Below, in pieces: positions 1-17,331 of a DNA stretch of 32,000 bases. The DNA is from Pyrobaculum islandicum DSM 4184 (GTDB lineage: Archaea > Thermoproteota > Thermoprotei > Thermoproteales > Thermoproteaceae), in contig NC_008701.1 in the NCBI RefSeq assembly GCF_000015205.1, forward strand, positions 777,436 through 809,435, read 5' to 3'. Below the pieces are notes generated by a model, which saw nothing but the letters and a program-made list of their open reading frames with translations, did not search any database and was not told where the DNA came from. Both the position numbers and the translations under genes were made by a program. Numbering within the stretch: position 1 is the first letter of the stretch; each line of letters begins with the position of its first letter.

Positions 1-674
1 TGGGCTCAGGAAAGACAACTCAGCTAAATCAACTTCTTTACTTAATTCCGCCGTGGTTTCAAGTGGTGGTAATAGAGAGAGGCGCCCGCGAGATTTGGGC
101 TCCGTTAGAAGGGCAGTTATTACATTTGTCTGTGCCAAACGAAGATAAGCTATGGGCGGCTTTAGACCAGGCTTTGAGATATGGCACTATACATACAATT
201 ATTGCGTTAGCCGAAGCTAGAACGCCGGCCGAACTAAAGACGTTGATTAATTATAAATTGACAGGCCACGGCGTTTTGACGACAATACACGCAGACACAG
301 TTAAAGACGCCGTGGTTCGTATTATAGAAGCTGAAGCTCCGCCTGAGGGTCTTGACGGCATATTAGTAATTCAACTGTCCGCAATAGCCGGCGCTAGATT
401 TGTAAAAGAGGCAAGGGCGGTGGCAGTAACCAAGGGGAGTGTTGAGGTAAGAGATGTTGCAGAGCTGACGCCTAAGATTTCGGCATATGTCAAAGAGATG
501 TATAAAACTGACTTAAAGAGCGAGCTTGCGTTGAGAGTAAAGGCTTTGTTAAAAGCGTCTGAAATAGACGATTTCCTTATTGCTAGAAAGACAATAGAGG
601 AGATGATATGGCTAAATCGTATTGATTTTAAAGCTTCGCTTTTTGAAGAGGCAAAACGTTTTGGCTATGTATAA
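1..674 (+). CDS. Secretion-superfamily ATPase (VirB11/FlaI/PilT-like), C-terminal part; 5' end lies outside the window
   Basis: The frame is open from nt 3. It reads GSGKTTQLNQLL (Walker A), ALRYGTIHTIIALAEAR (Walker B region, Glu retained) and TGHGVLTTIHA (His box). The Asp-box position reads VVVIERGAREI instead of IEDxxEL. Platform and pilin genes follow downstream. Confidence 0.75.
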   Translation, partial: GSGKTTQLNQLLYLIPPWFQVVVIERGAREIWAPLEGQLLHLSVPNEDKLWAALDQALRYGTIHTIIALAEARTPAELKTLINYKLTGHGVLTTIHADTVKDAVVRIIEAEAPPEGLDGILVIQLSAIAGARFVKEARAVAVTKGSVEVRDVAELTPKISAYVKEMYKTDLKSELALRVKALLKASEIDDFLIARKTIEEMIWLNRIDFKASLFEEAKRFGYV

Positions 675-684
675 ACTTTATCTC
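670..684 (+). promoter_or_regulatory. Stop-codon-embedded TATA-like box (gTATAAACTTTATC) for the 705 gene
   Basis: The TAA stop of the ATPase (672-674) lies inside an A/T box. The next ATG (705) is 33 nt after the T of that stop, the same geometry as five other junctions in this locus. Confidence 0.45.
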
Positions 685-704
685 GTAACTATACGGCGTG
701 ACAC

Positions 705-953
705 ATGATGTTAAAAAGAAAATCTTTGGCAGAAGCTATAGACTCTATTGTATATGGAGAAGGCGAAAATATAGAGACTAAAAGAGAGGAGAGTTGGCAA
801 GAATGTCTAGTCAAAGCGCTTGTAGAGATGCCTTCTGATATTGCAGATAAAGTCATATCGGCGCTACCGCCAGAAGTCTTGTTAAACATGTTGCAGAGCA
901 GAGAGGATCCATATATCAAACTAGCCCTACTCTTATTGAACAAGAGGAGATGA
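705..953 (+). CDS. Small soluble hypothetical protein (82 aa), pilus-like locus
   Basis: Same strand as the locus, promoter-like box 33 nt upstream, and an ATGA stop/start overlap with the next ORF at 950-953. The antisense ORF 689..943 is Ser/Leu-rich and was judged spurious. Confidence 0.5.
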   Translation: MMLKRKSLAEAIDSIVYGEGENIETKREESWQECLVKALVEMPSDIADKVISALPPEVLLNMLQSREDPYIKLALLLLNKRR

Positions 954-1282
954 TAGAAAAGAAAGCTATAAAGAAGGGGCTTACGGCTTCAACGGCCAGG
1001 TGGATATGTGAGTTGTCTAAAGAGCTAGGCGTAGATGAAAAACGATTTTTCAAAGCGGTATTAAAACTTGCAAAACATGGCATTTGGCTAGAGGAGGAAG
1101 ATTGGCGTATTATTGCCAAAGCGCTTGACTTATCGAAACATTTAGACATGGCTATAGACTATATCATACGTCGAGTGACATCAGGGGAGTCTCCTGAAAG
1201 AGTTGTGAAAGAAATGCCGAAGGCCGTAGAAAAGGCTGGAAAGCTAGCGCATATAAGAGAGGTGTTGTCAAATCTATTGTAA
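950..1282 (+). CDS. Small helical hypothetical protein (110 aa), possible helix-turn-helix
   Basis: Translationally coupled to the previous ORF (ATGA overlap). GLTASTARWICELSKELGVDEKRFFKAVLKL could be an HTH, but this is a guess from the sequence pattern only. Confidence 0.55.
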   Translation: MIEKKAIKKGLTASTARWICELSKELGVDEKRFFKAVLKLAKHGIWLEEEDWRIIAKALDLSKHLDMAIDYIIRRVTSGESPERVVKEMPKAVEKAGKLAHIREVLSNLL

Positions 1283-1295
1283 GTTTTTTCATCAC
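1280..1295 (+). promoter_or_regulatory. Stop-embedded promoter cassette TAAGTTTTTTCATCAC
   Basis: TAA stop at 1280-1282, a T6 run, and the next ATG at 1312 (32 nt after the stop T). Confidence 0.5.
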
Positions 1296-1311
1296 AAGCT
1301 TTGACACTTGT

Positions 1312-2508
1312 ATGCGTAGAGAAGATTTCTACATCTTGTCAGCGCCTATTTTTGCGACATATCTAGGCGCAGTCTCTGGTTCAGAAGCTTTAAAATATAC
1401 ATCTTTTAACGTAGCCGAACTTGATGAAAAAGAGTCGCGTCGGCTTTTCATATCCTCTCTAATGTCTTCGCCATCTTCTCTCTTTCTGGAGGATAAGGAG
1501 GATGTCGCTAGACAGGTTGGATACGCTTTAGCACAAGAAGAGGCTGGAGTAGACAGATCTACGATTGTACATTCGTTTTTAGAAAGCATGAAGGCGCTTG
1601 CGTCTTCAAAAATTGAGGCTAAAATGAGGTTGTATGAGTCTATCGCCTCTTCATTAGGTGCAGTATTCTTACTACCTCTTTTTCTTTTATTTCTCTGGGC
1701 AATAGGCATACTTGTCATAGATCCCCTCATCCTCTTGGCGTTAGTCTATGGCATAACTATGGCGTTGGGGACCATGGCGATTGTTATAACTCCGACAGAT
1801 TTAGACATATGGAAGACCTATGAATGGTCTATACCTTTAGGAATTGGTATTGCGACTATAGCCATGTTGTGGAATCTTCCCGTAGCTTTTCTAGCCTTTA
1901 GTTTAACAACATGGCTATGGCTAAAGATCAGAAATAGATTGTGGTGGTTTAACATAAGGAGGGAAGTTCCGCCGATGTTAAGATCTGTGGCCGCTATGCT
2001 TAAAGAGGGGGCGCCGCCTGAGCTTATATTAAGTAGACTAATGGGAGTTTTTAAAACAGCAGCCAAAATAGCATATGGCTATTATGTGCCTTCTCGTTAT
2101 TTTGTATTAGCTAAGGCGATGTATAAAGCCATAGTAGAGGCTGGGGGTTCAACAGCTATTAAATCAGTTGAATACATACAGTCGATAATTGACATAGAGA
2201 CTACATCTATTAGACGTATGGCAAGGCTATCTTCTGCATATTTCGCCTTATTTATTGTGGCAGTAATAATTCTCTCTATGGCTGTGTCATCTGCTGTAAA
2301 ACACTTGGCAAGTATAGACGTAAGTTACAACCCGTTTTTCCTCCCACCCCCCTACGACGAAGTAAGACAAGTATTGACAACTGCAATGTCTCTCATTGCC
2401 GCCAGCTACATCTCTGTGTTCTTACTGCCTCTTGGTATACACTATTCGACAATGTTGGGAGGCGCTGTAGGCGTCGTATTACAACATATCATAGCTCTCT
2501 TAATCTAA
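1312..2508 (+). CDS. Polytopic membrane platform protein, TadC/FlaJ/PilC-like
   Basis: 398 aa with two repeats of a cytoplasmic helical segment followed by hydrophobic helices. The second repeat begins RREVPPMLRSVAAMLKEGAPPELILSRL, which resembles the T2SF/TadC-domain signature. It sits next to the secretion ATPase, as in archaeal type IV pilus loci. Confidence 0.65.
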   Translation: MRREDFYILSAPIFATYLGAVSGSEALKYTSFNVAELDEKESRRLFISSLMSSPSSLFLEDKEDVARQVGYALAQEEAGVDRSTIVHSFLESMKALASSKIEAKMRLYESIASSLGAVFLLPLFLLFLWAIGILVIDPLILLALVYGITMALGTMAIVITPTDLDIWKTYEWSIPLGIGIATIAMLWNLPVAFLAFSLTTWLWLKIRNRLWWFNIRREVPPMLRSVAAMLKEGAPPELILSRLMGVFKTAAKIAYGYYVPSRYFVLAKAMYKAIVEAGGSTAIKSVEYIQSIIDIETTSIRRMARLSSAYFALFIVAVIILSMAVSSAVKHLASIDVSYNPFFLPPPYDEVRQVLTTAMSLIAASYISVFLLPLGIHYSTMLGGAVGVVLQHIIALLI

Positions 2509-2520
2509 AGTTTTTCCACT
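2505..2520 (+). promoter_or_regulatory. Stop-embedded promoter cassette CTAAAGTTTTTCCACT
   Basis: TAA stop at 2506-2508 and ATG at 2539 (33 nt). Nearly identical to the cassette at 2994-3009. Confidence 0.55.
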
Positions 2521-2538
2521 ATTGTCGCAAAGGTCTTT

Positions 2539-2997
2539 ATGCAAGCTAGAGGACTTACGACCGTTGAGTCTCTGCTTATCGCAGCCGCGTTTATAATCGT
2601 CGGCGTCATAGGCGTGTTGACATTTCAAGGTATAGGCAAATCTGCTGCCGAGTCGTTAAGAGCAAATGCCATTGTTACGGCAGACAGAGGGGGGTTTGAC
2701 GTAACAGTAGAAGTTCTTAACGGCAAAGTGTCTGCAGTATACGTTAGATATGGGCCCTCGGGCGGACAATTAAGCGCGCCTATCGTCGGCTCTTGTATTG
2801 TTGCACAAAACAGCCAAATACAAACAAATGTCCCCTCTACCAATTTGCTCCTAGTCGCAGGCCAATCGGCTACTTGTAGATTTACAGCTACGTTACAGTC
2901 AGGTGTCCAATATACATACGTGGTCTATGCAATAGATGCAAATAGCGGAAAATCTATCCAAATAGCTAAGGGAGTTGTAACAGTAGGAATATCCTAA
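2539..2997 (+). CDS. Type IV pilin-like protein with class III (prepilin) signal peptide
   Basis: The N-terminus MQARG/LTTVESLLIAAAFIIVGVIGVLTF has a short basic leader, Gly at -1, Glu at +5 and about 22 hydrophobic residues. The rest is beta-rich (152 aa). Confidence 0.75.
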   Translation: MQARGLTTVESLLIAAAFIIVGVIGVLTFQGIGKSAAESLRANAIVTADRGGFDVTVEVLNGKVSAVYVRYGPSGGQLSAPIVGSCIVAQNSQIQTNVPSTNLLLVAGQSATCRFTATLQSGVQYTYVVYAIDANSGKSIQIAKGVVTVGIS

Positions 2998-3009
2998 GGT
3001 TTTTCCACT
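2994..3009 (+). promoter_or_regulatory. Stop-embedded promoter cassette CTAAGGTTTTTCCACT
   Basis: TAA stop at 2995-2997 and ATG at 3028 (33 nt). Confidence 0.55.
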
Positions 3010-3027
3010 AACTTCCTCTCTTTTTTC

Positions 3028-3957
3028 ATGGACAAGATCTACATACTCTTGTTATTGACGGTAGCGACGTGGGGTCAGATAGTGAGTTGGCTTCCGCCTT
3101 ATGCACAATTAAGCCAAGCCTATGTTTACAACGCTACACACTTTCTAGTGTATTTAGATGGAGACACTATATATGTGACACAGATCGGCGTAGTTTTTAA
3201 TGGCACTAGCGCCGAGAGTAAAGCGGCTTATCAATACCTAATTGAACAGTGTAAATATATTGCTTTAGATGTAAGAAACGTCACTGCAAATGGAAAGCTA
3301 TGGCTAGCCGATGTCTATTGTTCTAAAGATGGCACTCTGTGGATGTGGCTAGGGTGGCTCCCACTGAGGTTTATGGCGTATAGAGGCTATGTCGAATTTA
3401 TGAATGCAGATAATATCACTGTTATAACGCCGGTTGGAACGTACGCCGGCTACATCCCGGCTGGGTGGTATTTAGATAGGAGGACGAAGACCGTTTTCAA
3501 ATTCCCCAGCTTCAACTTAACGTTAATTGAGGAGATATACAGACTTGACAAGATAATAGAGGAGATGAAAATACAACTTAGTCAATACTCAGTAAAATAT
3601 AACAAAACGAGTACTCTACTAGCTCAACTTGAGAACCAGATAGATGTATTAAGTATACAAAAACAAAAACTAGAGGAGTTGCTTAGACAGAGAGAAAACA
3701 TGGTAACAGCCCTATCTACAAATTTACAGATGTGTATTTCTGAAAATGAGATATTAAAGAGAAAATTGGCAGAACTAGAGGAGTTAAATAAAGCTCTTTC
3801 ATTAAAACTAACAAACTTAAGTAAAGCGTATCTTCAACTAAGTCAGAACACTCTAGAAAAACAAGAAGGGGGGAACTCCACAATCTATCTGCTTGTAATC
3901 GCGCTTACGGCAATAGTGATATTTCTCTTCATCTATAGGCGTCGTTTAGAGGGTTAA
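3028..3957 (+). CDS. Secreted, C-terminally anchored coiled-coil glycoprotein (309 aa)
   Basis: It has an N-terminal signal-like helix (IYILLLLTVATWG), an ectodomain of about 170 aa, and roughly 100 aa of heptad-rich sequence (LIEEIYRLDKIIEEMKIQL...LAELEELNKALSLKL). The C-terminus is a TM helix (IYLLVIALTAIVIFLFIY) followed by RRR. There are eight N-x-S/T sequons. Confidence 0.7.
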   Translation: MDKIYILLLLTVATWGQIVSWLPPYAQLSQAYVYNATHFLVYLDGDTIYVTQIGVVFNGTSAESKAAYQYLIEQCKYIALDVRNVTANGKLWLADVYCSKDGTLWMWLGWLPLRFMAYRGYVEFMNADNITVITPVGTYAGYIPAGWYLDRRTKTVFKFPSFNLTLIEEIYRLDKIIEEMKIQLSQYSVKYNKTSTLLAQLENQIDVLSIQKQKLEELLRQRENMVTALSTNLQMCISENEILKRKLAELEELNKALSLKLTNLSKAYLQLSQNTLEKQEGGNSTIYLLVIALTAIVIFLFIYRRRLEG

Positions 3958-3961
3958 GACT

Positions 3962-4399
3962 ATGGAAGATTTTATTGCCGCATACGTCTTTGTAATTGCC
4001 CTCTCTATATTAGTCGTGTATACGGCAGCGGTGCTAAAGCCGTTTATATTTACAAATGTCGTCGAAGTGCCAATAGCGCCGTCAAAAGAATTGCCGACGA
4101 GACATATCTACGTTTATAGCTCAGTCTCTGGACTATATGCGGTAGAGTATGAGGGGCTGGATGTAGAGGAATTTAGAAAAGCCATGGGTGTACCCGGCGC
4201 TCTAGTTGCAATATTTGAAGTATATCCTGGTGGATATCGTTGCGTAAATTATGCCAACTATACGGTTAAGCTTGGCCCAGACCCATATACGGGGCTTTGG
4301 TGTCCACCGCCTTTTAAAACAGAGACAAAGCCCTATTGTATACCAATAGGAATCACCTCACGCGGACGTTGGCTATTGGTACAATACCGTTGTCCATAA
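3962..4399 (+). CDS. Small N-terminally anchored protein (145 aa), pilin-like topology
   Basis: Single N-terminal hydrophobic helix FIAAYVFVIALSILVVYTAAV with no K/R-G cleavage motif. It starts 4 nt after the upstream stop and has one sequon (NYT). Confidence 0.6.
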   Translation: MEDFIAAYVFVIALSILVVYTAAVLKPFIFTNVVEVPIAPSKELPTRHIYVYSSVSGLYAVEYEGLDVEEFRKAMGVPGALVAIFEVYPGGYRCVNYANYTVKLGPDPYTGLWCPPPFKTETKPYCIPIGITSRGRWLLVQYRCP

Positions 4400-4400
4400 C

Positions 4401-4742
4401 ATGCATTTTGTAAGAGATGTCTTGGTTTTTGTAGGTCTTGCCGTCTTAACTACGGCAGTTATCTCGTCTCTCCTCCCTTTAAGAGAGGGCGTTGTTACAC
4501 TACCTGCCTGTTCTAGTTGTGAATTAAAGCTAAGGGGCGGGTATGTAATAGTTCAGGAGAATGACTCAGCTGTACTTTACTTAGGCACTAAAGCTGTTGT
4601 AAAATTTGGATGGGCTTATTACAGAGGAGAGCCTCTTGAAGTAGGACAAAAGATTGTGTGTGACCCAATGTATATCTATGTAGTGGGAGGAATTGTCTAC
4701 GTAAGTTGTGACGACGAAATGCCAAAGATAGGCAAGTGGTGA
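4401..4742 (+). CDS. Small N-terminally anchored protein (113 aa)
   Basis: N-terminal helix VLVFVGLAVLTTAVISSLL. It starts 1 nt after the upstream stop, in the same operon. Confidence 0.6.
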   Translation: MHFVRDVLVFVGLAVLTTAVISSLLPLREGVVTLPACSSCELKLRGGYVIVQENDSAVLYLGTKAVVKFGWAYYRGEPLEVGQKIVCDPMYIYVVGGIVYVSCDDEMPKIGKW

Positions 4743-4743
4743 T

Positions 4744-5427
4744 ATGTGGTCAACAGCTTTTGGAATAATTACGTCGGCTTTTGTGGTTTTTGCTATTGTA
4801 TATGCCACGCTACATGTGCCACATATATCTAATATAGATGTTATAGATCAACTATATAATGTAAAACTTTACCTCAATCAAAGCCTTAATTCATTAAATT
4901 ATACCCAAAATATAGAAATATTTAGAGAGTATGTAAATATTACAAGAGTTAGAGTAGTAAATATAACAGTTAGCTACAACGGGTCTGTTGTCAAATATCC
5001 ATTGTTGTTTCCACTTGGCCATAAGGTGTTAGGACGGGAGAGAAATGTGGTCTACCAACTATATGTAGATATCAAATGGTGTAGACCTACTCTCTTGCCA
5101 AGTGGCACATTGGCGTATCTGTACGAAATTAAAATAAGACATTCGATAGACATATTGCCTTGGCTAGAGACTAAGGCGCTTGTGCCAATTAGTGATAGTC
5201 TCTTCCGGCATTATTATGACGTGTGGAAATCTACTAACAAACCGCCTGTGTTAGGTCTCTCTCCGCCCCCAAATACGACATATGTTAGAGTAGCAAAGGC
5301 GTTAATTTACAGCACTAGAGAGGACGATGTAAAGCTCTACGTAGTAGCGCCATCTCCAGTGATATATATCATTGATTATCCGCTCGAACTCCCACTGGCT
5401 TGTCCCAACGCATTTTCCCAAAACTAA
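4744..5427 (+). CDS. N-terminally anchored glycoprotein (227 aa)
   Basis: N-terminal helix AFGIITSAFVVFAIVYATL and six N-x-S/T sequons (NQS, NYT, NIT x2, NGS, NTT). It starts 1 nt after the upstream stop. Confidence 0.6.
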   Translation: MWSTAFGIITSAFVVFAIVYATLHVPHISNIDVIDQLYNVKLYLNQSLNSLNYTQNIEIFREYVNITRVRVVNITVSYNGSVVKYPLLFPLGHKVLGRERNVVYQLYVDIKWCRPTLLPSGTLAYLYEIKIRHSIDILPWLETKALVPISDSLFRHYYDVWKSTNKPPVLGLSPPPNTTYVRVAKALIYSTREDDVKLYVVAPSPVIYIIDYPLELPLACPNAFSQN

Positions 5428-5440
5428 AGTTTTTCCTATC
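5424..5440 (+). promoter_or_regulatory. Stop-embedded promoter cassette CTAAAGTTTTTCCTATC
   Basis: TAA stop at 5425-5427 and ATG at 5457 (32 nt). This supports 5457 rather than 5400 as the true start of the large ORF. Confidence 0.55.
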
Positions 5441-5456
5441 TTCGATATTGTTTACT

Positions 5457-8456
5457 ATGCGTATTGTAATATTACTACTCCTCTCTATATTAGTATATTC
5501 GCAAGTTGTAACTTCTGTAACATGTAAGAAAGAGTTTGAATTTCAACTAGACACTTCCTCAGTTGTTACAATTTCTTTTTCATTTAGTGCGTTAGCTCCG
5601 CTTGGAATGGGAGGTCAGACTGTAGTTTTTACAGAGGGTCAACAATGGGTTGAAGTATGGGGAGAGAGGTTTCTCAACTTATCTAAGTTATTAGTCGCAT
5701 CTACTGCCACATCTGGACTATGGGATAGAGATCTGACCTACTCTCTCACTCTAGAATACTTTAAGCCGGGAGACAGTTGGGTTATTGGAGAGTACTTCTG
5801 TAAAGCTAGGTATGACAACGGCTTGGAGGTTATACAGATTTACTACAAGGTAGAGAAAGAGCCGGCGCGTGAAGTTAGACAAATATCATTCGTCGTGTTG
5901 CAGACACAAGTTCTATATAGAACAGAGGAGAGAATTTATGTCTCTCTACGCCCAGATGTCTACTACTCATGGCTTACGTCCCTTTGTAAAGAACTGCCAG
6001 ACAGTCTGACGTGGCCCCGGTGTACGCCCTACACGAGGGATAACTACGTAGTCAGCGCCTCCTCGCCTAGGGTTTGGAAGGCGTTAGAAATAAATAGTAA
6101 GAAGCCTGGCGAGATAGTCGTATTGAGAAATGTCTACGCCGTTGTTCCAAACCCGTGGCTGTATGGAGAGTGTTATCTAGGGAGATGCTCAGCGTCTATA
6201 TCTACAGACAGGGGGATTGTTGTCTATATAGGCGATGTATATAACATACCGTTTTCTAAGAGAGTAGACATCTCTATAATTGCAGCGCCTATTGGATGGG
6301 GCGAAATTGAGGTTAGGCCGCCGAGACAAATTCCGCTGTATGTCTCACGTGTAGTACAAATGGGGGGTTTTTCATGCAGACCGCCCGACTGCTTTGTAGT
6401 AGATGAAGTTGGCAATGCAACATGGATAGGCAAAAATTGGGTTTGGAACTGGACGTTGGCGTCTATCGCAGTTAAAACGCCGCACATCTTGGTGCCATAT
6501 GTAGCCGTGGGACTTGTCCAAGATGGACAATATTCTGCGATAGGTAGAGGCGTGTCGGTGTATATGCCTTTAGGCTCAGTCGCCGTTTTAAAAACTACAG
6601 TATTATGGCGTTTAGAGATGGGAAATAAGTCTGTTTGGATAGGCTCAACTCCTGGCACATACCTCCGCGTAGTAGATGATAGAGGCAATATCGTAGATTA
6701 TGAAGAAGCTGCCTCGCGTGGCAAATTAGAATATCGTGTGACGAATATGCCGCTTTCCAATACCAAATGGGCTGTCTTTGAGACTGCTGTAGATGAGACA
6801 TTTCGGAAAGTCTATACTGCATGGTATTCGCCACCAAATCCATGTAGCCAATGGCCTAGGCAGTTGCTCAACTGTGTACACCTACAACATGTATATACAA
6901 AAGTAAATGGCACTTTCCTAAGTTACACCAGGGTCGGGACAACAAATAAATGGCCGGTCACACACCTAGCGCTTATCGATTGGCTAATTCCAAAAATCCC
7001 ACGTATATGCGGACGTGACAGGTTTAGCGACTTTATGAGCTTAGTTGTAGGAGATCCAGCTCTGTACTTCTGGCATACATACCGACTTAGGACTTACGAA
7101 TTTAACCCGTCGACTGGTGATTGGGATATACCAAGAGAGTGTGAGTACCCACCGCCGCATCAAGTATCTATGTTAAGTTCAGTTTACAACACGGCCTCCT
7201 ACCGTAACACAACACGTGGATTTGAGAAGTTGTACTTCGAAACAGCTGAAGGAAACGGTACATTTTACAACTATGTTTTTGAAGGCGTAAATGGGTATGA
7301 ATACCCGGCGGGCTGGACCGACGTGTTGCCACTGGGGATACCGTCTATGACAACAAATACGACAAGTCCCTGGCTTGTGTTTCTAGTGCCAACTACGGCG
7401 TGCAGATCTATCATATGTACAAGCCTAGATGTAACTCTCTGGGGGCCTACGCCGGGGCCTACTCCAGATCTAGCTCTCCCTGGTGCTGGTTACTCTTTTC
7501 TAATTATATATACAGGCACTATTAAAAATATAACTATACGTATATTTATAGAAAAAGGATTTGTAGCATATATACAGAAAGGTGTGATATATAAACCAGT
7601 GGAAAACTATATGTTAACAGAGGTTAAAAAACTCTGGAAACCCTTGGACGGCGTATACGTAGGTCCAGGCTGGTGGACAGAGTATAAACCTCTTGTTTCA
7701 TGTCAATACTTATCGTTAGGTGAAAAGTCGATATATGTCACTCCAACAGATTGGGCGGGTCCCCTGATCTTGACGATTGAGGAGTTTTCAGAGGGCGCGT
7801 CTAAACGCTATAGTTACGTCTTCTTCATTTCTAACAACGTCTCGTATAGAATAGACGTAACTTCGACAACGCCGCAAAACTTCACCACGTTATACCTCAA
7901 CGTGTCGTTATCGCTATACGTAAACAGAATTCCCTATTTCCACGGCTATGTTGTAATAGGAGAGGGAGGGAGAGTCAGGCCATATATTTGTAAAACTGTA
8001 GATATATTGTCACATTCGTTTTTTGGCGGCGTTGGACAAACTTCGCAACTTACAACAAATGGTGAATTCTGGGGAGAAGTTGATATAGTGGACAGAATTA
8101 GGTTAGTCGATAAATTTGTTATACCGAGCTTTGAAATAGTATATTTTTCAAGAGGAGTTGTAAAAATAAACGCAGAGGGACCTGTCATAGGTTTTGCGTT
8201 CTACTTAATGCGTAATGGTATATGGACAAAAGTAGGAGAGGCGCTGGGGTCGTGCGTATTAATTAACGCTACTTTAATATATCCCTGGGATCCACTACTC
8301 GTATTGCCTATAGTTAAATACCACATAGAGGCACGGGCTGGAGATGTTGTAGTGCTATGGCGTCCAAAACCGTCGCTTTTCTTTAAAACTTGGGCTGACT
8401 CAATGGGATATTCTATTGGCGTGTCTAGTACATTAGAAGTACTAGGCAAATGTTAA
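5457..8456 (+). CDS. Large secreted glycoprotein (~999 aa), candidate tip adhesin or surface component
   Basis: It starts MRIVILLLLSILVYSQVVTS (signal peptide) and has no other TM segment. By eye it is beta-rich and rich in Cys, Trp and Tyr. At least 12 N-x-S/T sequons are present (NLS, NAT, NWT, NKS, NGT, NTT, NIT, NVS, NFT and others). I recognise no family motif. Confidence 0.7.
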   Translation: MRIVILLLLSILVYSQVVTSVTCKKEFEFQLDTSSVVTISFSFSALAPLGMGGQTVVFTEGQQWVEVWGERFLNLSKLLVASTATSGLWDRDLTYSLTLEYFKPGDSWVIGEYFCKARYDNGLEVIQIYYKVEKEPAREVRQISFVVLQTQVLYRTEERIYVSLRPDVYYSWLTSLCKELPDSLTWPRCTPYTRDNYVVSASSPRVWKALEINSKKPGEIVVLRNVYAVVPNPWLYGECYLGRCSASISTDRGIVVYIGDVYNIPFSKRVDISIIAAPIGWGEIEVRPPRQIPLYVSRVVQMGGFSCRPPDCFVVDEVGNATWIGKNWVWNWTLASIAVKTPHILVPYVAVGLVQDGQYSAIGRGVSVYMPLGSVAVLKTTVLWRLEMGNKSVWIGSTPGTYLRVVDDRGNIVDYEEAASRGKLEYRVTNMPLSNTKWAVFETAVDETFRKVYTAWYSPPNPCSQWPRQLLNCVHLQHVYTKVNGTFLSYTRVGTTNKWPVTHLALIDWLIPKIPRICGRDRFSDFMSLVVGDPALYFWHTYRLRTYEFNPSTGDWDIPRECEYPPPHQVSMLSSVYNTASYRNTTRGFEKLYFETAEGNGTFYNYVFEGVNGYEYPAGWTDVLPLGIPSMTTNTTSPWLVFLVPTTACRSIICTSLDVTLWGPTPGPTPDLALPGAGYSFLIIYTGTIKNITIRIFIEKGFVAYIQKGVIYKPVENYMLTEVKKLWKPLDGVYVGPGWWTEYKPLVSCQYLSLGEKSIYVTPTDWAGPLILTIEEFSEGASKRYSYVFFISNNVSYRIDVTSTTPQNFTTLYLNVSLSLYVNRIPYFHGYVVIGEGGRVRPYICKTVDILSHSFFGGVGQTSQLTTNGEFWGEVDIVDRIRLVDKFVIPSFEIVYFSRGVVKINAEGPVIGFAFYLMRNGIWTKVGEALGSCVLINATLIYPWDPLLVLPIVKYHIEARAGDVVVLWRPKPSLFFKTWADSMGYSIGVSSTLEVLGKC

Positions 8457-8950
8457 CGCTTAGGTATTTACTATCGCTTATAGCAGCTGTATTAGCCACA
8501 GCTATTGTGTCTCTTGTGGCGGCGTATGCGCTACAACATGCAGACCCCTTGATAAAGAGCGTTGCAACGTCGTTGGCAAGCGGGAAGTCTGCCAAGTCGG
8601 AAATTCCTATTTCGCTACGTAAATATAAGGTGGACTATACATATAGTGAAGGCCGCTGGGTTTTAACAAATAGAGGCGGCATACCGCTCTATGCAGTTGG
8701 CGTAGGCGTATGTCCAGACTCTATAAATGTCTTCTTTAACAAAACTTACAGCTCTACTAATAACACAGTACATATATCTAAGTGTTCTATTATCTTGCCG
8801 TCTATCGAAATGATACATAACTCAGTTGTATTTACACATGTAGTACCTCTCTGTCTCACAGGCACAGATTTTAAGACAGAGGTTGTAGAACAGAAATACA
8901 TCTATGCGAATTTCACAATTAGGGTCAGAGCCGTTGTGGTAAATTGCTAA
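8450..8950 (+). CDS. N-terminally anchored glycoprotein (166 aa)
   Basis: N-terminal helix YLLSLIAAVLATAIVSLVAAYAL. It overlaps the large ORF by 7 nt (ATGTTAA) and carries the sequons NKT, NNT and NFT. Confidence 0.6.
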   Translation: MLTLRYLLSLIAAVLATAIVSLVAAYALQHADPLIKSVATSLASGKSAKSEIPISLRKYKVDYTYSEGRWVLTNRGGIPLYAVGVGVCPDSINVFFNKTYSSTNNTVHISKCSIILPSIEMIHNSVVFTHVVPLCLTGTDFKTEVVEQKYIYANFTIRVRAVVVNC

Positions 8951-8963
8951 AGTTTTTCCCGAG
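8947..8963 (+). promoter_or_regulatory. Stop-embedded promoter cassette CTAAAGTTTTTCCCGAG
   Basis: TAA stop at 8948-8950 and ATG at 8980 (32 nt). This supports 8980 rather than 8944 as the start. Confidence 0.55.
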
Positions 8964-8979
8964 AGATAGAGACGGCTAT

Positions 8980-9249
8980 ATGCGGCTTGAATTAGCGTTA
9001 ATCCCTATCATATTTGCCTTGGCAACGGCCGCTCTGACATTTCTAAAACCTGTAGAATTTCACTCAATAGACTTGACATCGATATTTGTCTACTGGCCGG
9101 AGTCTCTATACTATGCAGAGAGGGGAGATCCAACAGCTATATATCGTATTACAGGGCTTGTTACATGTCTCTCTAAAGGCGTAATCGAGGCGCCTCCCGG
9201 CATTTCCTTTAAAGTACTCAAGCTTATCTGCCGCTTTAACACATGGTAG
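8980..9249 (+). CDS. Small N-terminally anchored protein (~89 aa)
   Basis: It starts MRLELALIPIIFALATAALTFL, 32 nt after the cassette. Confidence 0.55.
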   Translation: MRLELALIPIIFALATAALTFLKPVEFHSIDLTSIFVYWPESLYYAERGDPTAIYRITGLVTCLSKGVIEAPPGISFKVLKLICRFNTW

Positions 9250-9542
9250 AAGATATTCTAGAGGTTATAGCAGTTAACACTCTTGCCCTATTTACTCTAG
9301 CAATATTTTTAACACTCTATACATACTCTACGCCTAACGTATGTCAAGTAGCTGAGACAGTGTTAAAATTTCCCGGTTCTGAAATTCACGTCTATGGGCG
9401 TTTTAAGGTGTGGAACGATACAAAACACGTCTATTTATCGTGCGGCTTGGCGTTGTCTCGAGATAAAGTTCTCCAGATAAACAGAACAGAAGGCTTACTA
9501 AGAATAGGTAGTACGGCAGAAGGTAAGTTATATATATCTTAG
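9243..9542 (+). CDS. Small N-terminally anchored protein (99 aa), last gene of the locus
   Basis: N-terminal helix VIAVNTLALFTLAIFLTLYTY. It overlaps the previous ORF (ATGGTAG) and carries the sequons NDT and NRT. Confidence 0.55.
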   Translation: MVEDILEVIAVNTLALFTLAIFLTLYTYSTPNVCQVAETVLKFPGSEIHVYGRFKVWNDTKHVYLSCGLALSRDKVLQINRTEGLLRIGSTAEGKLYIS

Positions 9543-10019: not shown

Positions 10020-11180
10020 TTATGGTATTACGTTCTCAAGAGCTTGAGCTAAGTCGTTGATTATATCATTCACATCTTCAAGTCCTACGGAAAGTCTGAC
10101 TAGATCTTCTGTTATCCCTAGGATTTTTCTATCTTCTTCGGGAATAGGCGAGGCCGCGCTTGCCACAGGGTATGTGGCAATACTTTCCACGCCCCCAAGA
10201 CTCGGGCCTGGCGTTATTAATCTTAACGACTTAAAGAATTTAATAACTGTCTCCTTGCCGCCCTTTACCCTAAAGGAAACTACGGCGCCAAATTTATCGC
10301 CAAAAAGTTTTTTTGCGATAGCATGATCTGGATGGCTGGACAAGCCTGGGTATATAACTTCGCTTACCTTGCTATGCTCAGATAAAAACTCTGCGACTGC
10401 CTTTGCGGATCTACATTGCTGTTCAAATCTTACAAATAGCGTTTTAAGACCGCGTAGCGTGAGAAATGCCTCAAACGGCTGCATAATGCCGCCAAGCATA
10501 GCTCTCCAGACCCACAACTCCTCAAGTAGCTCTCGTTTAGATACCACAGCCACACCGCCTATTACATCGTTATGGCCAGCGATATATTTAGACGTAGAAT
10601 GTACAACAAAGTCCGCGCCGTGAGATATAGGCTGTATTAATACAGGCGTTGCAAAAGTGTTGTCAACAACTACGGTAGCCCCCAGATCTTTTGCTGCTTT
10701 AATAACTTCTGGAGTGTCTAAAACTCTCAACGTAGGATTTGTAATTGTTTCAAAAAATACAACATTCGGTCTGCTCTCCTTTAGAAATTCAATATATACG
10801 TCTGTGCTTGGATACGCCTTTTGCATCTTTACGCCAAATTTACTTAGAGAACTTAAAAGCCGTAATGTCGCGCCGTAGGCCTCCATCGTTACTAATATTT
10901 TTGCGTCTGAACGCAGTAGAGATAAAAACACAGAAGATAGGGCAGCCATGCCGCTATTAAAAGCAAGTGAGTCTACGCCTCCTTCAAGAGAAGCTAAAGC
11001 CTCTTCAAGAGGACGTAGAGTGGGATTTTCTTCTCTGCTATATTTGAGGTCAAATCCCCTGTCTGACTTCTGGGCCTCTCCCTCCATTCTAAATAATGCA
11101 GTCTGATAAATAGGAGGCTGAAGCGAGCCGTAAGGGTCGGAGTTTCTGTAACCCCTTACGGCTATAGTCGCCCTGCGCAT
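10020..11180 (-). CDS. Cys/Met-metabolism PLP-dependent enzyme (cystathionine gamma-synthase / beta-lyase / O-acetylhomoserine sulfhydrylase type)
   Basis: 386 aa with the PLP-lysine motif HSTSKYIAGHNDVIGG, plus NPTL and DNTFATP family blocks. Confidence 0.85.
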   Translation of the reverse strand: MRRATIAVRGYRNSDPYGSLQPPIYQTALFRMEGEAQKSDRGFDLKYSREENPTLRPLEEALASLEGGVDSLAFNSGMAALSSVFLSLLRSDAKILVTMEAYGATLRLLSSLSKFGVKMQKAYPSTDVYIEFLKESRPNVVFFETITNPTLRVLDTPEVIKAAKDLGATVVVDNTFATPVLIQPISHGADFVVHSTSKYIAGHNDVIGGVAVVSKRELLEELWVWRAMLGGIMQPFEAFLTLRGLKTLFVRFEQQCRSAKAVAEFLSEHSKVSEVIYPGLSSHPDHAIAKKLFGDKFGAVVSFRVKGGKETVIKFFKSLRLITPGPSLGGVESIATYPVASAASPIPEEDRKILGITEDLVRLSVGLEDVNDIINDLAQALENVIP

Positions 11181-11363
11181 TCTGTCTCTTTATCAATTTG
11201 CTATATAAATTTTTATAGCTCTATATCATCATTTTCAATGATCATATATAAAAACTAAGTATTTTCTTTTAGAATTCTATTGTAAGGACACTTAGATTGT
11301 TTATTGTTATTATACATATGTACTTAGGCTTAAAATCTATAAACCTTGTGTCATCAAGGTCAT

Positions 11364-12870: not shown

Positions 12871-15243
12871 TTACTCTGCAACTCTAGAACTTTCCTCCTT
12901 AGTCACCATATATAGTCTTGCGTTTGGAACCGCGTCTTTTATCACATCTGCAAAATCGCCAGACTGTGTAGCTACTACGATCTGATAACGTGAAGAAAGA
13001 GATCTAACTAATTCTGCGAAAGCTCTCCTGATATTTACATCAACATATGGAATAGGTTCGTCAAATATTATAAAGCCAATTTGTATATTGGATATTTCCC
13101 TAAGCGCGAGAGCTAGGGCTAGAGCTATCGAAAGTCTTTGTCCATCGCTTAGCTTTGAAATACCGTATCTCTCGCCAGTGGGAGATATCGCATAGAAGTC
13201 GTAGTAGCCCTTACGTTGTTCTAGATCTACATTTACTTTTGAAATATCGCCATATCTATAGAGCGTTAGAAATACTTCGTTAAAGCGAGATTTTGCAATC
13301 TCCACTAACCGAGCTCTCGCGTTGACTTTGACAAGTTCAAACTTTGCCTTAACTTCTTGTAGCTTGCTATAGGCATAAAGCGTGTTATCTAGTGCCTTTT
13401 TCAAATTTTCCGCATCTCCCCCCACTTCTCTTACAATCTCTTCTAATACAGCCTTCTCTCTGTATAATTCTGCTAAACGGCTAGAAGTTCTCTCTAGCTC
13501 TTCGGTAATCTCCCTCCAGCGCATTTCCACATCTAAGATTTCTCTAACGACGCCGGCTTTGTTTAACATTTCCTCAAGCTCTTTAAGGCGGCGTTTTAGC
13601 TCTCGAACTCTAAGCATCTTTCCATATTTAGAAAGCGCATCTAAAATCGTGCGTTTGTCAACCCTAGTTATCAAAGAGTGTAATTTTTCAACACGTCTCT
13701 CTAGTTGTTTAAGTGCTTTTTCAGCCTGTATCATTTTCTTAATGATTTCTTCTCTCTCAAGTTTTAACTCCTCTAGTCTATTCTTTGTGGATAAATACTC
13801 TGCAACCTCGCCGCTTAATATTTCCATTTCGTCTACAGCTTTTTCATACTCTCTAATCCTCTCCTTTAGATTTTCTACTTCGTGTATTAACTCGCCAAAT
13901 TTGCTCTCTACCTCTCTAGCTATGTTTAACGCAACCTCCCGACTTATGGGAGAGCCGCATATAGGACATCTATTGACGCCTATTTCCGCAATATAGAGAG
14001 ATACCGTCTTAAGAGCCGAAATATATGCCATAGATTTCTCAGTTTCTTCGAGCCTCCTCTTCAACTCGTTGAGGGCAGCTTTAGCCGTTTCTAGAGATTG
14101 AAACGACTTCTGAAGCTCTTTAAACCGTATATATGACCTTTCAAGTCTCCTCAGTTTAGTCTCAACTTCTTTAATTTCGTCTTCAAGCTTCTTCACCCTA
14201 GCTAGATACTGTTCGTATGTCTTTCGTACTTCAGAAATCTGACTCTCTAAATCTTTTGATAATCTAACAAGGGCCTCATAAGCTTCAACCATGGCAGCCG
14301 ATAAAGATTCTAGGTCTCTAGTTGTGAGTTTTTCAAGAAGCTCATGCCCCAGTATATGTTCATACTCCTCTAAGGCCTCTTGCAGAGCGTCTCTAATTTT
14401 CTCAACGGCGTCTAAACCAACATCTTCGCCTGTAGTTGATTCCAAGATCTCTAATTCAGATCTCGTTTTGTAATACTCCAATAAAATGTTCTCGTTCTCT
14501 CTGATTTTCTCCAAATAGCCGGCTCTTCTCTTGGCTAACTCTTCTACTGTTTTAGTAAGATTTACCTCGCGCTCTTTTAACGCCGCCAGCTCACCTTCTA
14601 TAGTCTCTAACCTAGTTACAACGCCTTTATAGCCACCATATTTCTTAATTATATCTCTATATTTTTCATATGTAGAAAGTCTTTTTCTCAAATTTTCGGC
14701 TTTCTCCAACAGATATTTCTCTATAGATGACACAACTCTTAAAATGTTGTCAATTATGTCAATACCAAATAGACGGTCTACTGAAAGCGTTCTCTTTTGT
14801 GCTGTGCCGTATATAAAACCCTCTAGAGTCCTATGCGAAATATATACAAGTCGTTCATATATGTCTTCGTCGGCTCCTATGAGTTCAACTAGTCTTTCTT
14901 CAGCATCTCTATCTCTTAGTTTAATGCCGTTATAAAGTACAACAAGCTTCTCAGATCCCCGCCGCCCTAGTCTTCTTTCTATACGAAGTTTGTCGTTGCC
15001 TCTGCGTAATTCTAGCGCTACATTGGCTTCCTGAGCGTCTACATTAATCAGATCTACAAGTTTTGCTACTCTCTCTCTTACCTCAAGCTGTTTTCCAAAG
15101 AGGGCATATTCTATGGCATATAGGAGAGAGGTCTTCCCAGCCCCGATTCTTCCCAATAAAATTGTAACATCCCCTAGGCTTACCTCATGTCTCCCCTTGT
15201 ATGACCTGAAATTTTCTAGTTCAATCTTTTCTATCCTCCACAT
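12871..15243 (-). CDS. rkd-4: SMC/Rad50-like coiled-coil ATPase, arcadin-4 of the crenactin cluster
   Basis: 790 aa with Walker A GRIGAGKTS. A long heptad coiled coil is interrupted mid-way by RCPICGS (a CxxC hook). It also has the signature LSDGQRLSIALALALAL and Walker B FIIFDEP. It is the last gene of the crenactin operon and has no Mre11/HerA/NurA neighbours. Confidence 0.8.
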   Translation of the reverse strand: MWRIEKIELENFRSYKGRHEVSLGDVTILLGRIGAGKTSLLYAIEYALFGKQLEVRERVAKLVDLINVDAQEANVALELRRGNDKLRIERRLGRRGSEKLVVLYNGIKLRDRDAEERLVELIGADEDIYERLVYISHRTLEGFIYGTAQKRTLSVDRLFGIDIIDNILRVVSSIEKYLLEKAENLRKRLSTYEKYRDIIKKYGGYKGVVTRLETIEGELAALKEREVNLTKTVEELAKRRAGYLEKIRENENILLEYYKTRSELEILESTTGEDVGLDAVEKIRDALQEALEEYEHILGHELLEKLTTRDLESLSAAMVEAYEALVRLSKDLESQISEVRKTYEQYLARVKKLEDEIKEVETKLRRLERSYIRFKELQKSFQSLETAKAALNELKRRLEETEKSMAYISALKTVSLYIAEIGVNRCPICGSPISREVALNIAREVESKFGELIHEVENLKERIREYEKAVDEMEILSGEVAEYLSTKNRLEELKLEREEIIKKMIQAEKALKQLERRVEKLHSLITRVDKRTILDALSKYGKMLRVRELKRRLKELEEMLNKAGVVREILDVEMRWREITEELERTSSRLAELYREKAVLEEIVREVGGDAENLKKALDNTLYAYSKLQEVKAKFELVKVNARARLVEIAKSRFNEVFLTLYRYGDISKVNVDLEQRKGYYDFYAISPTGERYGISKLSDGQRLSIALALALALREISNIQIGFIIFDEPIPYVDVNIRRAFAELVRSLSSRYQIVVATQSGDFADVIKDAVPNARLYMVTKEESSRVAE

Positions 15244-15433
15244 CGATGCCTAATCTCCTGAGATATTCTACTAACGTGTTTTTAGCAGCTTTTACGCCGC
15301 CCTGCCTATACGCAACTATTAGAGACTCCGCAAGTCTCCCCTCTTCTGTATTTCCAAATACTCTTCTAACTTCTTCAAGCAGTACATCCACAGTATATAA
15401 TGCTATAAAGACACTTATATTATTAACTCCCAC
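15221..15433 (-). CDS. rkd-3: Small protein (70 aa) in the arcadin-3 position of the crenactin cluster
   Basis: It overlaps both neighbours (11 nt upstream, 23 nt downstream) on the same strand. The assignment is by position only; I do not recall the reference sequence. Confidence 0.45.
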   Translation of the reverse strand: MGVNNISVFIALYTVDVLLEEVRRVFGNTEEGRLAESLIVAYRQGGVKAAKNTLVEYLRRLGIDVEDRKD

Positions 15434-16016: not shown

Positions 16017-16018
16017 AC

Positions 16019-17326: not shown

Positions 17327-17331
17327 CTATT

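Follow-up and report, generated by a model that had tools for sequence, protein, structure and literature searches.

Gene organization of the pilus locus

The window analysed here is a stretch of 32,000 nucleotides of the Pyrobaculum islandicum DSM 4184 genome (contig NC_008701.1, positions 777,436 to 809,435), which opens on a type IV pilus locus read on the forward strand. The first gene, g01 (3–674), is truncated by the start of the window and codes for the C-terminal part of a secretion ATPase (Pfam T2SSE, E 4e-7). In contigs L011 and L007, the first unit consists of five coupled genes, u1, u2, u3, a MinD-like gene and the ATPase gene, so that g01 is the last of them. The genes g02 (705–953) and g03 (950–1282) overlap by 4 nt and code for small cytoplasmic proteins; the fold of g03 is modelled as all-helical (AF2 model, pLDDT 87.8). 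The platform protein g04 (1312–2508) is polytopic and TadC-like, and forms a one-gene unit; it has 162 homologues, one of which, P0002 from P. neutrophilum, bears the UniRef name "Type II secretion system protein". The pilin g05 (2539–2997), another one-gene unit, has a prepilin-type N-terminal hydrophobic helix (MQARGLTTVESLLIAAAFIIVGV...). Its orthologues are syntenic in every locus compared, and a search of PDB sequences with g05 returned no match.

Four coupled genes follow, g06 to g09 (3028–5427), separated by 4, 1 and 1 nt; g06 combines a coiled coil with a C-terminal transmembrane segment, and g07 to g09 have N-terminal hydrophobic helices. Then come g10 and g11 (5457–8950), which overlap by 7 nt: g10 is a protein of 999 amino acids with a signal-peptide-like N-terminus, and g11 lies at 8450–8950. 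The last coupled pair, g12 (8980–9249) and g13 (9243–9542), codes for two proteins with N-terminal hydrophobic helices.

This gene content matches that described for type IV pilus subclade 4G of the Pyrobaculum–Thermoproteus group (Makarova et al. 2016, PMC4858521): a diverged ATPase, a TadC-like platform, a PilA-type pilin, a MinD/FleN ATPase, two small helical cytoplasmic proteins, several minor-pilin-like proteins, a large protein with a C-terminal transmembrane segment and a large signal-peptide protein. The available part of that account deals with protein content only, and mentions neither promoter architecture nor the class of boxes described below.

Six junctions with a fixed geometry

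The gaps between the genes of the locus are bimodal, since six spacers measure 29–30 nt and the other seven junctions are coupled, with gaps of −7 to +4 nt. The initial annotation had pointed out that at the six spaced junctions the upstream stop codon opens a T-rich box and lies 32–33 nt before the next ATG. Recomputing the distances from the T of the stop to the A of the ATG confirms this at all six positions (33, 32, 33, 33, 32 and 32 nt, in order).

Cassette 3 (2506–2541, TAAAGTTTTTCCACTA, ATG at 2539, 33 nt), whose T-run starts 28 nt before the ATG, cassette 4 (2995–3030, TAAGGTTTTTCCACTA, ATG at 3028, 33 nt), cassette 5 (5425–5459, TAAAGTTTTTCCTATC, ATG at 5457, 32 nt) and cassette 6 (8948–8982, TAAAGTTTTTCCCGAG, ATG at 8980, 32 nt) do have the common 12-mer that had been assigned to four of the junctions: TAARGTTTTTCC matches exactly at 2506, 2995, 5425 and 8948, against 0.04 matches expected, and none of 100 shuffled sequences reached four. 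The looser motif GTTTTTCC is found six times (1.1 expected). The two other cassettes carry weaker versions of the box. Cassette 1 (672–707) has its TAA stop at 672–674, the degenerate box TAAACTTTATC and its ATG at 705, a distance of 33 nt; cassette 2 (1280–1314) has a TAA stop, TAAGTTTTTTCA (T6 then CA) and its ATG at 1312, a distance of 32 nt. In other species, the orthologues of these two junctions mostly have a full T5-6 C(C) box, which for cassette 1 reads TAA(R)NTTTTTCC or T6CG at an unchanged distance.

Conservation of the box in orthologous loci

We compared 48 junctions from ten syntenic orthologous loci, including those of P. oguniense TE7 (present twice) and Pyrobaculum sp. WP30. 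The consensus Y-A-A-R-N-T5-C-C is kept at the six corresponding junctions. From the first T of the run to the ATG there are 27 or 28 nt in 42 of the 48 cases and 27–30 nt in every case, a regularity that may be slightly favoured by the assignment of orthologous start codons from homology and the nearest ATG. The two bases of the AA pair, 3–4 nt before the T-run, are present in 43 and 41 junctions, respectively; the base after the T-run is C in 43, and a second C follows in 39. The information content reaches 1.0–2.0 bits at AA, T5 and CC, whereas no other position, spacers included, exceeds 0.65 bits.

The position of the stop codon, on the contrary, is free. It lies 31–34 nt from the ATG, inside the box, in 28 of the 48 junctions, and 40–178 nt away, upstream of the box, in the other 20; in two more junctions (L004 g03>g04 and L008 g04>g05) the box is within the upstream reading frame and the stop is downstream of it. 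Since the box stays put in all these cases, the stop codon is, on this comparison, not intrinsic to the element, and stop-embedding is a packing state.

The base before the start codon is a pyrimidine in 47/47 promoter-preceded starts, but it discriminates weakly, since the same holds for 36/44 coupled starts (82%). SD-like 4-mers are found at 5/47 promoter-preceded and 11/44 coupled starts.

The constant spacing relative to the start codon is also what a signal in the mRNA would produce: GUUUUUCC would then be a conserved motif of the 5'-UTR or of intercistronic RNA, some 20 nt ahead of each start, that serves processing or translation. We consider this very unlikely: the motif has no anti-SD complementarity, neither structure nor sequence is conserved from the box to the ATG (at most 0.45 bits), hairpin-type signals were looked for at the junctions and none was found, canonical DNA promoters in the window occupy the equivalent position (−29 to −21), and the mapped Pyrobaculum mRNAs are leaderless (PMC2151090, PMC2699501).

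A probable promoter class distinct from the canonical one

Neighbouring genes and tRNAs have TTTTTAAA, TTTATATA or TATAAATA at the equivalent position, and the promoter that opens the locus is itself TTTTTAAA, without T5-CC. The proposal that outside the locus the core continues as TTTTTAWA (upstream of 17673, 28632 and 28992) was roughly right; the sites actually read AAAGTTTTTATATA at 17673 and AGTTTTTAAAA at 28632 and 28992, so that only AGTTTTT is common to these sites and the cassettes. The first of them belongs to the arcadin-1 gene at 17673, outside the locus and on the reverse strand, whose promoter (17671–17708, cTGAAAGTTTTTATATA) is canonical and stop-embedded, with a T-run that starts 29 nt before the ATG.

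Among T-run promoters at equivalent spacing, 37 are of the CC type and one of the A/T type in the locus core, against one and nine outside it, a contrast for which the Fisher p-value is only indicative because orthologous junctions are not independent observations. The sole CC-type case outside the core is the MinD-like gene of the pilus locus itself. We take T5-CC to be a distinct promoter class rather than the general one; the variant is conserved genus-wide.

As a TATA box, TTTTTCC is poor, with A or T at only five of eight positions.

Leaderless promoters at such a distance are already known in Pyrobaculum; the T5-CC variant is the new part. All ten transcripts mapped experimentally in P. 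aerophilum are leaderless (Slupska 2001, J Mol Biol 309:347, as cited in PMC2151090 and PMC2699501), and their promoters resemble the cassettes: a box about 26–28 nt upstream of the start codon (PMC2151090, PMC2699501, PMC6028130), transcription starting at the ATG (which we only infer here), no SD sequence, and occurrence also in tightly packed gene arrays. The difference is that the general P. aerophilum box is an A/T-rich element of 8 bp (TTTTTAAA, TTTATATA), whereas in the cassettes the 3' half is the invariant CC, and that the T5-CC variant is confined to particular loci.

Terminators or promoters?

In vitro, efficient termination by an archaeal RNA polymerase at 90 °C requires a run of at least five T (work on the hpyA1 gene of P. 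furiosus, PMC2253867), and the T5 run of the boxes equals this minimum. It could therefore be supposed that the locus is one long operon in which T5-CC boxes are terminators or attenuators that set stoichiometry, the downstream genes being translated from a polycistronic RNA. There is a precedent in the P. furiosus archaellum (arl) operon, where intergenic terminators attenuate a single EarA-dependent transcript (PMC10665913); in both cases oligo-T signals lie between type IV filament genes and are proposed to tune how strongly the modules are expressed relative to one another. T-runs followed by C are also found directly after stops in the expanded junctions of the pilus locus.

We nevertheless find this model improbable. 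The position of a terminator would be expected to follow that of the upstream stop, but the boxes keep 27–30 nt to the ATG while the stop is 9–178 nt away, and unlike in arl each T-run belongs to a promoter-like box whose spacing to the following ATG is fixed. Moreover, expanded junctions have, besides the box, a separate run of at least four T after the stop (11 of 20), a terminator would have no use for the conserved AA pair before the T-run, and the genes after boxes rarely have the SD-like motifs mentioned above.

A terminator role of the T5 run in addition to a promoter role is plausible: its length suffices for intrinsic termination or attenuation of transcription coming from the upstream unit, and the extra T-runs after the stop in 11 of 20 expanded junctions fit such a role. 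The CC is not obviously a terminator feature, since GC-rich sequence after oligo-T gave no better termination in vitro, AT-rich downstream sequence being the one that improves it. At hpyA1, termination and re-initiation, which are linked, are both influenced by the sequence that immediately follows the T-run (Spitalny & Thomm 2008, PMC2253867). There, polymerase is recycled to the promoter of its own gene, while the cassettes would require a hand-over to the overlapping downstream promoter.

Sharing with the Ted DNA-import locus

A metagenome scan for TAAGGTTTTTCC-N20/21-ATG returned at least 120 stretches; among the matches listed, 11 are orthologues of the pilus locus, one belongs to a tedC locus, and the remaining stretches look like chance hits. 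The box lies 27–28 nt before tedC in each of seven distinct tedC contigs from Pyrobaculum, and it also precedes the giant downstream PaRep2b gene in all six tedC contigs that reach that far. The idea that TTTTTCC is specific to the pilus locus thus holds with respect to the surrounding genes, from which it is absent, but not with respect to tedC and the PaRep2b gene. Among the matches listed, T5-CC in Pyrobaculum is a mark of two loci, the pilus locus of subclade 4G and that of the Ted DNA-import pilus, though the class may have further carriers.

Cassettes 3 and 4, which flank the pilin gene, share a 16-mer with one mismatch, as might be expected if the repeats were functionless products of chance, compositional bias or local duplication. 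This reading is effectively refuted by the enrichment of TAARGTTTTTCC, by the retention of the box, but not of the adjoining spacers, at corresponding junctions of genomes of 44–65% GC, and by the 723 kb of unrelated scan stretches, in which no further class match was found.

Proposed mechanism and regulation

Taking together the sequence evidence (geometry, conservation, class contrast and sharing with Ted), we think it likely that the cassettes are compact core promoters for leaderless mRNAs that start at the ATG, and that the T5-CC class is under common control. They are best read as BRE/TATA-type elements, because the spacing between box and ATG is fixed and the position of the stop is free. 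Each cassette would consist of a BRE-like purine element (Y-A-A-R), a T5 "half TATA box" and the invariant CC, and RNA polymerase would start at, or within 1–2 bases of, the A of the next ATG. The 32–33 nt geometry would result from a fixed promoter-to-start distance and an intergenic spacer that has shrunk to its minimum; the upstream stop would be absorbed into the box because the BRE-like part already reads TAA. Of the initial view of the cassette as stop, terminator and BRE/TATA in one, the core-promoter part is thus retained (fixed box–ATG distance, AA pair at the BRE place, −1 pyrimidine), the terminator part is plausible, and the stop is dropped as an intrinsic part.

Regarding regulation, a comparison can be made with the ups pilus cluster of Sulfolobus acidocaldarius, which also has several promoters with a common T-rich, C-terminated motif: upsX, upsE and upsA require the class-specific cis motif A(N)TTTC (PMC5817253). 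The ups genes are described as part of a TFB3-dependent Ups/Ced DNA-damage regulon (PMC5817253, PMC6101591, PMC9905601). There, a DNA-import system is co-regulated with the pilus; in Pyrobaculum, the two loci share the T5-CC box in their sequences. Ted and Ced components are without sequence similarity (PMC9905601). In Sulfolobus the motif occupies −44 to −39 and is followed by a distinct BRE/TATA, whereas T5-CC falls on the BRE/TATA position itself (−33 to −22 from the ATG).

It may be, then, that the 12-mer serves chiefly as operator for a sequence-specific regulator (an occluding repressor, or an activator that compensates for a weak TATA) rather than as a variant TATA/BRE for general factors. 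We regard this as possible but less probable than the core-promoter reading, with which it overlaps and which it does not exclude. The ups precedent speaks for an operator, as do the conservation of CC and YAAR far beyond the needs of canonical promoters in the same genomes, the restriction of the class to two appendage loci (among the matches listed) and the pair of small HTH genes that immediately precedes the tedC unit in Ted loci. On the other hand, the motif is exactly at the required BRE/TATA place and no other A/T-rich element precedes the ATG, so that general factors must also use it. No regulator came to light in the pilus locus (a fold search with the g03 model gave nothing significant, with a best E of 0.5, and HTH matches of g03 were sub-threshold).

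The shared box most likely reflects common control by a dedicated factor, whose existence we infer, and the conservation of T5-CC together with its sharing with Ted hints at a dedicated regulon. The pilus locus would comprise one unit with a canonical promoter (u1–u3, the MinD-like gene and the ATPase gene) and six T5-CC units (g02–g03; platform; pilin; g06–g09; g10–g11; g12–g13). The seven-unit split first suggested is kept across species as a partition into modules, except that the ATPase gene shares the first unit with four others (L011, L007). We predict that these modules are separately tunable units. Last, stop-embedding is a packing habit general to this genome, of which the arcadin-1 promoter is an example.

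The pilus locus and its orthologues

The first 9.5 kb of the window hold 13 co-directional genes (g01 to g13, 3 to 9542, + strand). At the window start, g01 codes for a secretion ATPase (Pfam T2SSE), of which the C-terminal part is present. It is followed by two small proteins (g02 and g03), a polytopic platform protein of 398 aa (g04), whose nearest named homologue is found in Pyrobaculum neutrophilum (71% identity), a pilin of 152 aa with an N-terminus of the prepilin type (g05), and eight more proteins, most of which have a hydrophobic N-terminal helix and one of which is 999 aa long. L011, a near-identical contig, and L007, an orthologous locus, show that the window opens inside the first unit, which consists of five coupled genes encoding u1, u2, u3, a MinD-like ATPase (a weak CbiA/MinD match in L011) and the secretion ATPase.

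The synteny of the 13 genes is kept across 10 loci detected in a protein-anchored scan, including P. oguniense TE7 (two copies), Pyrobaculum sp. WP30 (CP012158.1, 1.133–1.154 Mb) and several MAGs of 49–65% GC. Makarova et al. described a complex type IV pilus system, "subclade 4G", in the Pyrobaculum–Thermoproteus group (PMC4858521). The locus appears to match this subclade by gene content and order: the secretion ATPase, the TadC-like platform, the PilA-type pilin, MinD/FleN, two small helical proteins and two large proteins are found here in one syntenic cluster. The identification of g05 as the flagellar-like type IV pilin of P. calidifontis is not demonstrable, and g05 gave no match to solved structures.

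A conserved box at a fixed distance from the start codon

The initial annotation had pointed to six junctions at which the T of the upstream TAA lies 32 or 33 nt ahead of the A of the next ATG, and this spacing is confirmed: it is 33, 32, 33, 33, 32 and 32 nt for the spacers that start at 672, 1280, 2506, 2995, 5425 and 8948, respectively. At the remaining junctions of the cluster, the genes are −7 to +4 nt apart. The motif TAARGTTTTTCC has four coding-strand matches for 0.04 expected, and none of 100 shuffles gave four. Weaker variants are found at 672 and 1280, where most of the orthologous junctions have the full box. Beyond the box of 12–16 nt, the spacers of the window are unrelated to one another.

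We aligned the junctions on the downstream start and tabulated 48 of them from the ten syntenic loci. The T-run starts 27, 28, 29 or 30 nt ahead of the ATG in 22, 20, 4 and 2 junctions, respectively; it is exactly five T long in 37 and exactly six in 6. C is the first base after the T-run in 43 of the 48 junctions and the second in 39. Positions −4 and −3 relative to the T-run are AA (43 and 41 junctions), followed by a purine and preceded by T in 31 junctions or C in 12. The information content is 1.0–2.0 bits at the AA, the T5 and the CC, and at most 0.65 bits elsewhere, including the 20 nt that lead to the ATG. The conserved motif, Y-A-A-R-N-T5-C-C (hereafter the T5-CC box), thus lies at about −33 to −22 relative to the ATG, over the position of the BRE/TATA, and nothing is conserved further upstream. 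The AA and purine ahead of the T-run agree with the BRE rule quoted in PMC5817253. The T5, at −28 to −24, is placed where the canonical, A/T-rich TATA-type boxes of the window are, while the 3′ half is CC, so that about 5 of 8 positions are A/T.

Both copies of the pilus locus in P. oguniense TE7 (CP003316.1; L003 at 487.6–508.8 kb and L005 at 615.2–636.4 kb) hold the full set of 13 genes and have T5-CC boxes. A further TTAAAGTTTTTCC-N20-ATG occurs at position 21099 of L003, about 1.1 kb past g13.

A probable promoter for leaderless mRNA

The distance from box to ATG is 27–30 nt in 48 of 48 junctions, irrespective of the upstream gene. Since this distance is fixed and that from the stop to the box is not, the element fits a leaderless core promoter rather than a terminator or a stop-linked signal. 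The ten P. aerophilum transcripts that have been mapped by experiment are all leaderless (Slupska et al. 2001, cited in PMC2151090 and PMC2699501), and in archaea the promoter box of leaderless genes is placed about 26 nt ahead of the start (PMC6028130). For Pyrobaculum, neither the geometry nor the leaderless reading is new. SD-like 4-mers, present ahead of 5 of 47 promoter-preceded starts and 11 of 44 coupled starts, are rarer at the former; a pyrimidine at −1, found at 47 of 47 promoter-preceded starts versus 36 of 44 coupled starts, discriminates only weakly. A scan for bacterial-type signals (sigma-70 promoters and hairpin terminators), which are not expected in an archaeon, was blank at the six junctions.

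The proposal that the cassettes are promoters which divide the locus into modules was largely right; it overstated the stop codon as a component and the restriction to this locus. The six T5-CC core promoters would start leaderless mRNAs for g02–g03, the platform protein, the pilin, g06–g09, g10–g11 and g12–g13, and upstream of them lies the unit for the cytoplasmic components, with its canonical promoter.

The stop codon and the packing of the promoter

Making the stop codon part of the element overstated its role, since the stop lies anywhere from 31 to 178 nt from the ATG while the box stays at 27–30 nt. In 28 of the 48 junctions the stop is 31–34 nt from the ATG, that is, inside the box (compact junctions), and in the other 20 it is 40–178 nt away (expanded junctions). 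In two further junctions the stop is even downstream of the box, which is then in the upstream reading frame: g03>g04 of L004 (aaaCTTTTTC, 5440–5494) and g04>g05 of L008 (aaaCTTTATCC, 11150–11198), both of which keep the box-to-start distance of 27 nt. In eight of the 20 expanded junctions, the YAAR position is still occupied by TAA (seven) or TAG (one), which does not act as the stop there. When its first base is T, YAAR begins with TAA, and this can be taken as the stop of the upstream gene when the spacer is reduced to promoter length.

The same arrangement is found with a canonical promoter. On the − strand, at 17671–17708, the TGA of a nitroreductase-family gene leads straight into AAAGTTTTTATATA (cTGAAAGTTTTTATATA), whose T-run is 29 nt before the ATG of arcadin-1, which shows that packing of a stop into the BRE is general in this genome. 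We regard stop-embedding as a packing state of the promoter; a stop in the BRE and the 32–33 nt geometry are, taken alone, ordinary for Pyrobaculum.

A class distinct from the general promoter

A de novo logo of the regions upstream of ORFs (100 aa or longer) from outside the locus was blurred by shadow ORFs and start-codon errors, and we replaced it with box-anchored counts, in which a T-run has to start 26–30 nt ahead of the ATG of a reading frame of 60 codons or more. Inside the cores of the pilus loci, 37 promoters are of the CC type and 1 is of the A/T type, versus 1 and 9 outside; in the window alone the numbers are 4 and 0 inside versus 0 and 6 outside (p = 1/210, Fisher exact test by hand), these statistics being indicative only, as orthologues are not independent. 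Outside, the sole CC case belongs to the MinD-like gene in copy L003 of P. oguniense, where a T5-CC promoter replaces the upstream coupled genes. The genes and tRNAs around the loci have TTTTTAAA, TTTATATA, TATAAATA or TTAAAAAT at the equivalent position, and the first promoter of the pilus locus, which follows a tRNA gene immediately, has a canonical box too (TTTTTAAA or the like). This placement of the locus right after a tRNA gene (…GGTTCGAATCCCGGCCGG…), with TTTTTAAA as first promoter, is seen in several species: in L006 (about 200–260), in L004 (about 1060–1119) and at the equivalent places in L008 and L009.

The CC is kept in genomes of 44–65% GC beside spacers that are not conserved, which argues for selection. 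We consider the T5-CC box to be a class distinct from the general promoter. A literature search for TTTTTCC returned primer sequences only, and the literature searched gave no description of the T5-CC class or of its joint presence in the 4G pilus locus and the Ted locus; as far as these searches show, this is the new part of the present analysis.

The box is shared with the Ted DNA-import locus

Scanning metagenomes for TAAGGTTTTTCC-N20/21-ATG returned at least 120 stretches, which are a sample. Among the matches listed, 11 stretches are orthologues of the pilus locus (tblastn) and about 105 resemble chance matches (short ORFs, unrelated GC content); 723 kb of those unrelated stretches yielded no additional match of the T5-CC class. 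In one stretch of 60% GC (L098), the box is ahead of a 174-aa protein that matches PDB 8DFT (E 6e-6), which is TedC of P. calidifontis, a conjugation-type pilin (PMC9905601) of the Pyrobaculum DNA-import system Ted. A polytopic TedA-like gene comes next after tedC, and the homologues of this TedC protein are exclusively from Pyrobaculum.

Seven distinct contigs have [C/T]AAGGTTTTTCC ahead of tedC, with a T-run that starts 27–28 nt from the ATG; the upstream stop is embedded at 32–33 nt in three of them. The giant PaRep2b-containing gene past tedA has AAAATTTTTCC or TAAGGTTTTTCC 29–30 nt from its start, and a Rad51/KaiC-like unit of the Ted contigs has a variant, TAAARTATTTCC. Canonical boxes (ATTTAAGTAA) are found at other genes of these contigs, for example the one that precedes tedC. 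Some tedC promoters have, as spacer from box to ATG, a G/C hairpin and then a T-run (CCCCCGGGTGGGGGTTTT(T)C) that ends at the ATG (L133, 7974–8003; L137, 4320–4350).

The TTTTTCC ending had been taken as specific to the pilus locus; its presence at tedC and at the giant PaRep2b gene means that "class-specific" should replace "locus-specific". Judging from these sequences, the appendage loci marked by the T5-CC box number at least two: that of the 4G pilus and that of the Ted DNA-import system.

The T5 run as a possible terminator

The P. furiosus RNA polymerase, at 90 °C, needs a run of at least five T for more than 80% termination (PMC2253867), and in five of the six cassettes of the window a T5 or T6 that reaches this minimum begins 1–2 nt past the stop. 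Extra runs of at least four T between the stop and the box are found in 11 of the 20 expanded junctions, when about one such run is expected over all expanded spacers together (a rough estimate from base composition alone); by this surplus, the units appear to be terminated at the junctions. In compact junctions, the sole T-run available is the T5 of the box. In vitro, AT-rich downstream DNA raised termination and GC-rich DNA did not; a part in termination is not evident for the CC. A role of the T5 as terminator is plausible, and the run probably attenuates incoming transcription.

A proposed dedicated factor and common regulon

The nearest functional analogue of the T5-CC loci is the ups operon of Sulfolobus acidocaldarius, where three promoters share the motif A(N)TTTC (PMC5817253) and whose expression is co-regulated with that of the Ced DNA importer via TFB3 (PMC9905601). 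Like the A(N)TTTC class of Sulfolobales, the T5-CC box is common to several type IV pilus promoters (the six junctions) and to DNA-import genes (tedC and the giant gene). Unlike A(N)TTTC, which sits at −44 to −39, ahead of a separate BRE/TATA, the T5-CC box overlaps the BRE/TATA (−33 to −22), which places it outside the A(N)TTTC class; by analogy, it may serve the same end. Oligo-T signals are also used in P. furiosus, where they are intergenic and tune a type IV filament operon (PMC10665913).

The deviant box would most likely reflect a common control of the pilus units and Ted, by a factor that accepts the CC or depends on it: either an alternative TFB/TBP, or an activator that offsets the weak TATA. 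In its most complete form, the proposal is that a dedicated pathway (an alternative TFB/TBP paralogue or a small activator) reads the box and co-regulates the 4G pilus, in an adhesion or aggregation role, and Ted, in a DNA-import role, and that the T5 also terminates the incoming polymerase, which re-initiates about 22 nt downstream. We advance this combination tentatively and think it rather improbable as a whole. It would make the pathway the Thermoproteales counterpart of the TFB3–Ups/Ced DNA-exchange regulon of Sulfolobales, and the hand-over at each box would turn the co-directional gene array into a series of leaderless mRNAs.

A candidate for the factor, which is absent from the window, is a Pyrobaculum-specific TFIIB paralogue reported as linked to a type IV pilus-like ATPase (PMC4858521). 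In Ted loci, two adjacent small HTH genes lie just ahead of the tedC unit (L132, 4304–4959; L135, 2467–3110; L138, 4525–5141; L139, 800–1470); one product is HTH_5/MarR-like (about 132 aa) and the other HTH_23/Sigma70_r4_2-like (74–92 aa), and they are candidate T5-CC regulators.

A regulator encoded in the pilus locus itself was also considered. Orthologues of g03 (950–1282) include P0137 and P0140, and JGI names many of these orthologues "DNA-binding Lrp family transcriptional regulator" or "biotin operon repressor". All Pfam HTH matches of g03 are sub-threshold (E 0.01–0.1) and its all-helical AF2 model (pLDDT 87.8) has no significant fold match in the PDB (best E 0.5, TM 0.39), so that neither Pfam nor the fold search supports g03 as a DNA-binding protein.

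Other features of the window

A cytoskeleton-type cluster (12871–17673, − strand) adjoins the pilus locus. It comprises an SMC-like protein of 790 aa (12871–15243), a 197-aa protein, an actin-family, crenactin-like protein (16019–17308, Pfam Actin) and arcadin-1 (17332–17673, Pfam Arcadin_1, E 1e-42), all on the − strand. The SMC-like protein resembles Rad50 at first sight, and we rejected it as a Ted-linked recombinase, as its gene clusters with those of the actin-family protein and arcadin-1.

A tRNA gene of 125 nt (28632–28756, + strand) is barely above the Rfam threshold. A tRNA-like stretch on the same strand (GGGGCCGTAGTCTAGCC...GGCGGCCCCACCA, about 28832–28960), missed by ARAGORN and Rfam, probably holds several introns. 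A tRNA-Thr (29597–29694) and a tRNA-intron endonuclease gene (19764–20315) are on the − strand. Last, the region 20750–21500 is rich in GC (up to 66%, against 44% for the window) and devoid of any convincing ORF; this island gave no credible Rfam match (best E 0.9) and may be an uncatalogued structured RNA.

Significance

YAARN-T5-CC, located 22–23 nt ahead of a leaderless ATG, is a short and easily scored variant of the core promoter. It is conserved genus-wide, absent from the neighbouring genes, whose functions are housekeeping or unknown, and common to the 4G and Ted loci. The box offers a natural system to ask how the archaeal pre-initiation complex uses half a TATA box, and whether one T5 run can be terminator and promoter together. 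Its sharing leads to a concrete and testable regulon hypothesis, which would give the 4G pilus a functional tie to DNA exchange, comparable to that of Ups to Ced in Sulfolobus.
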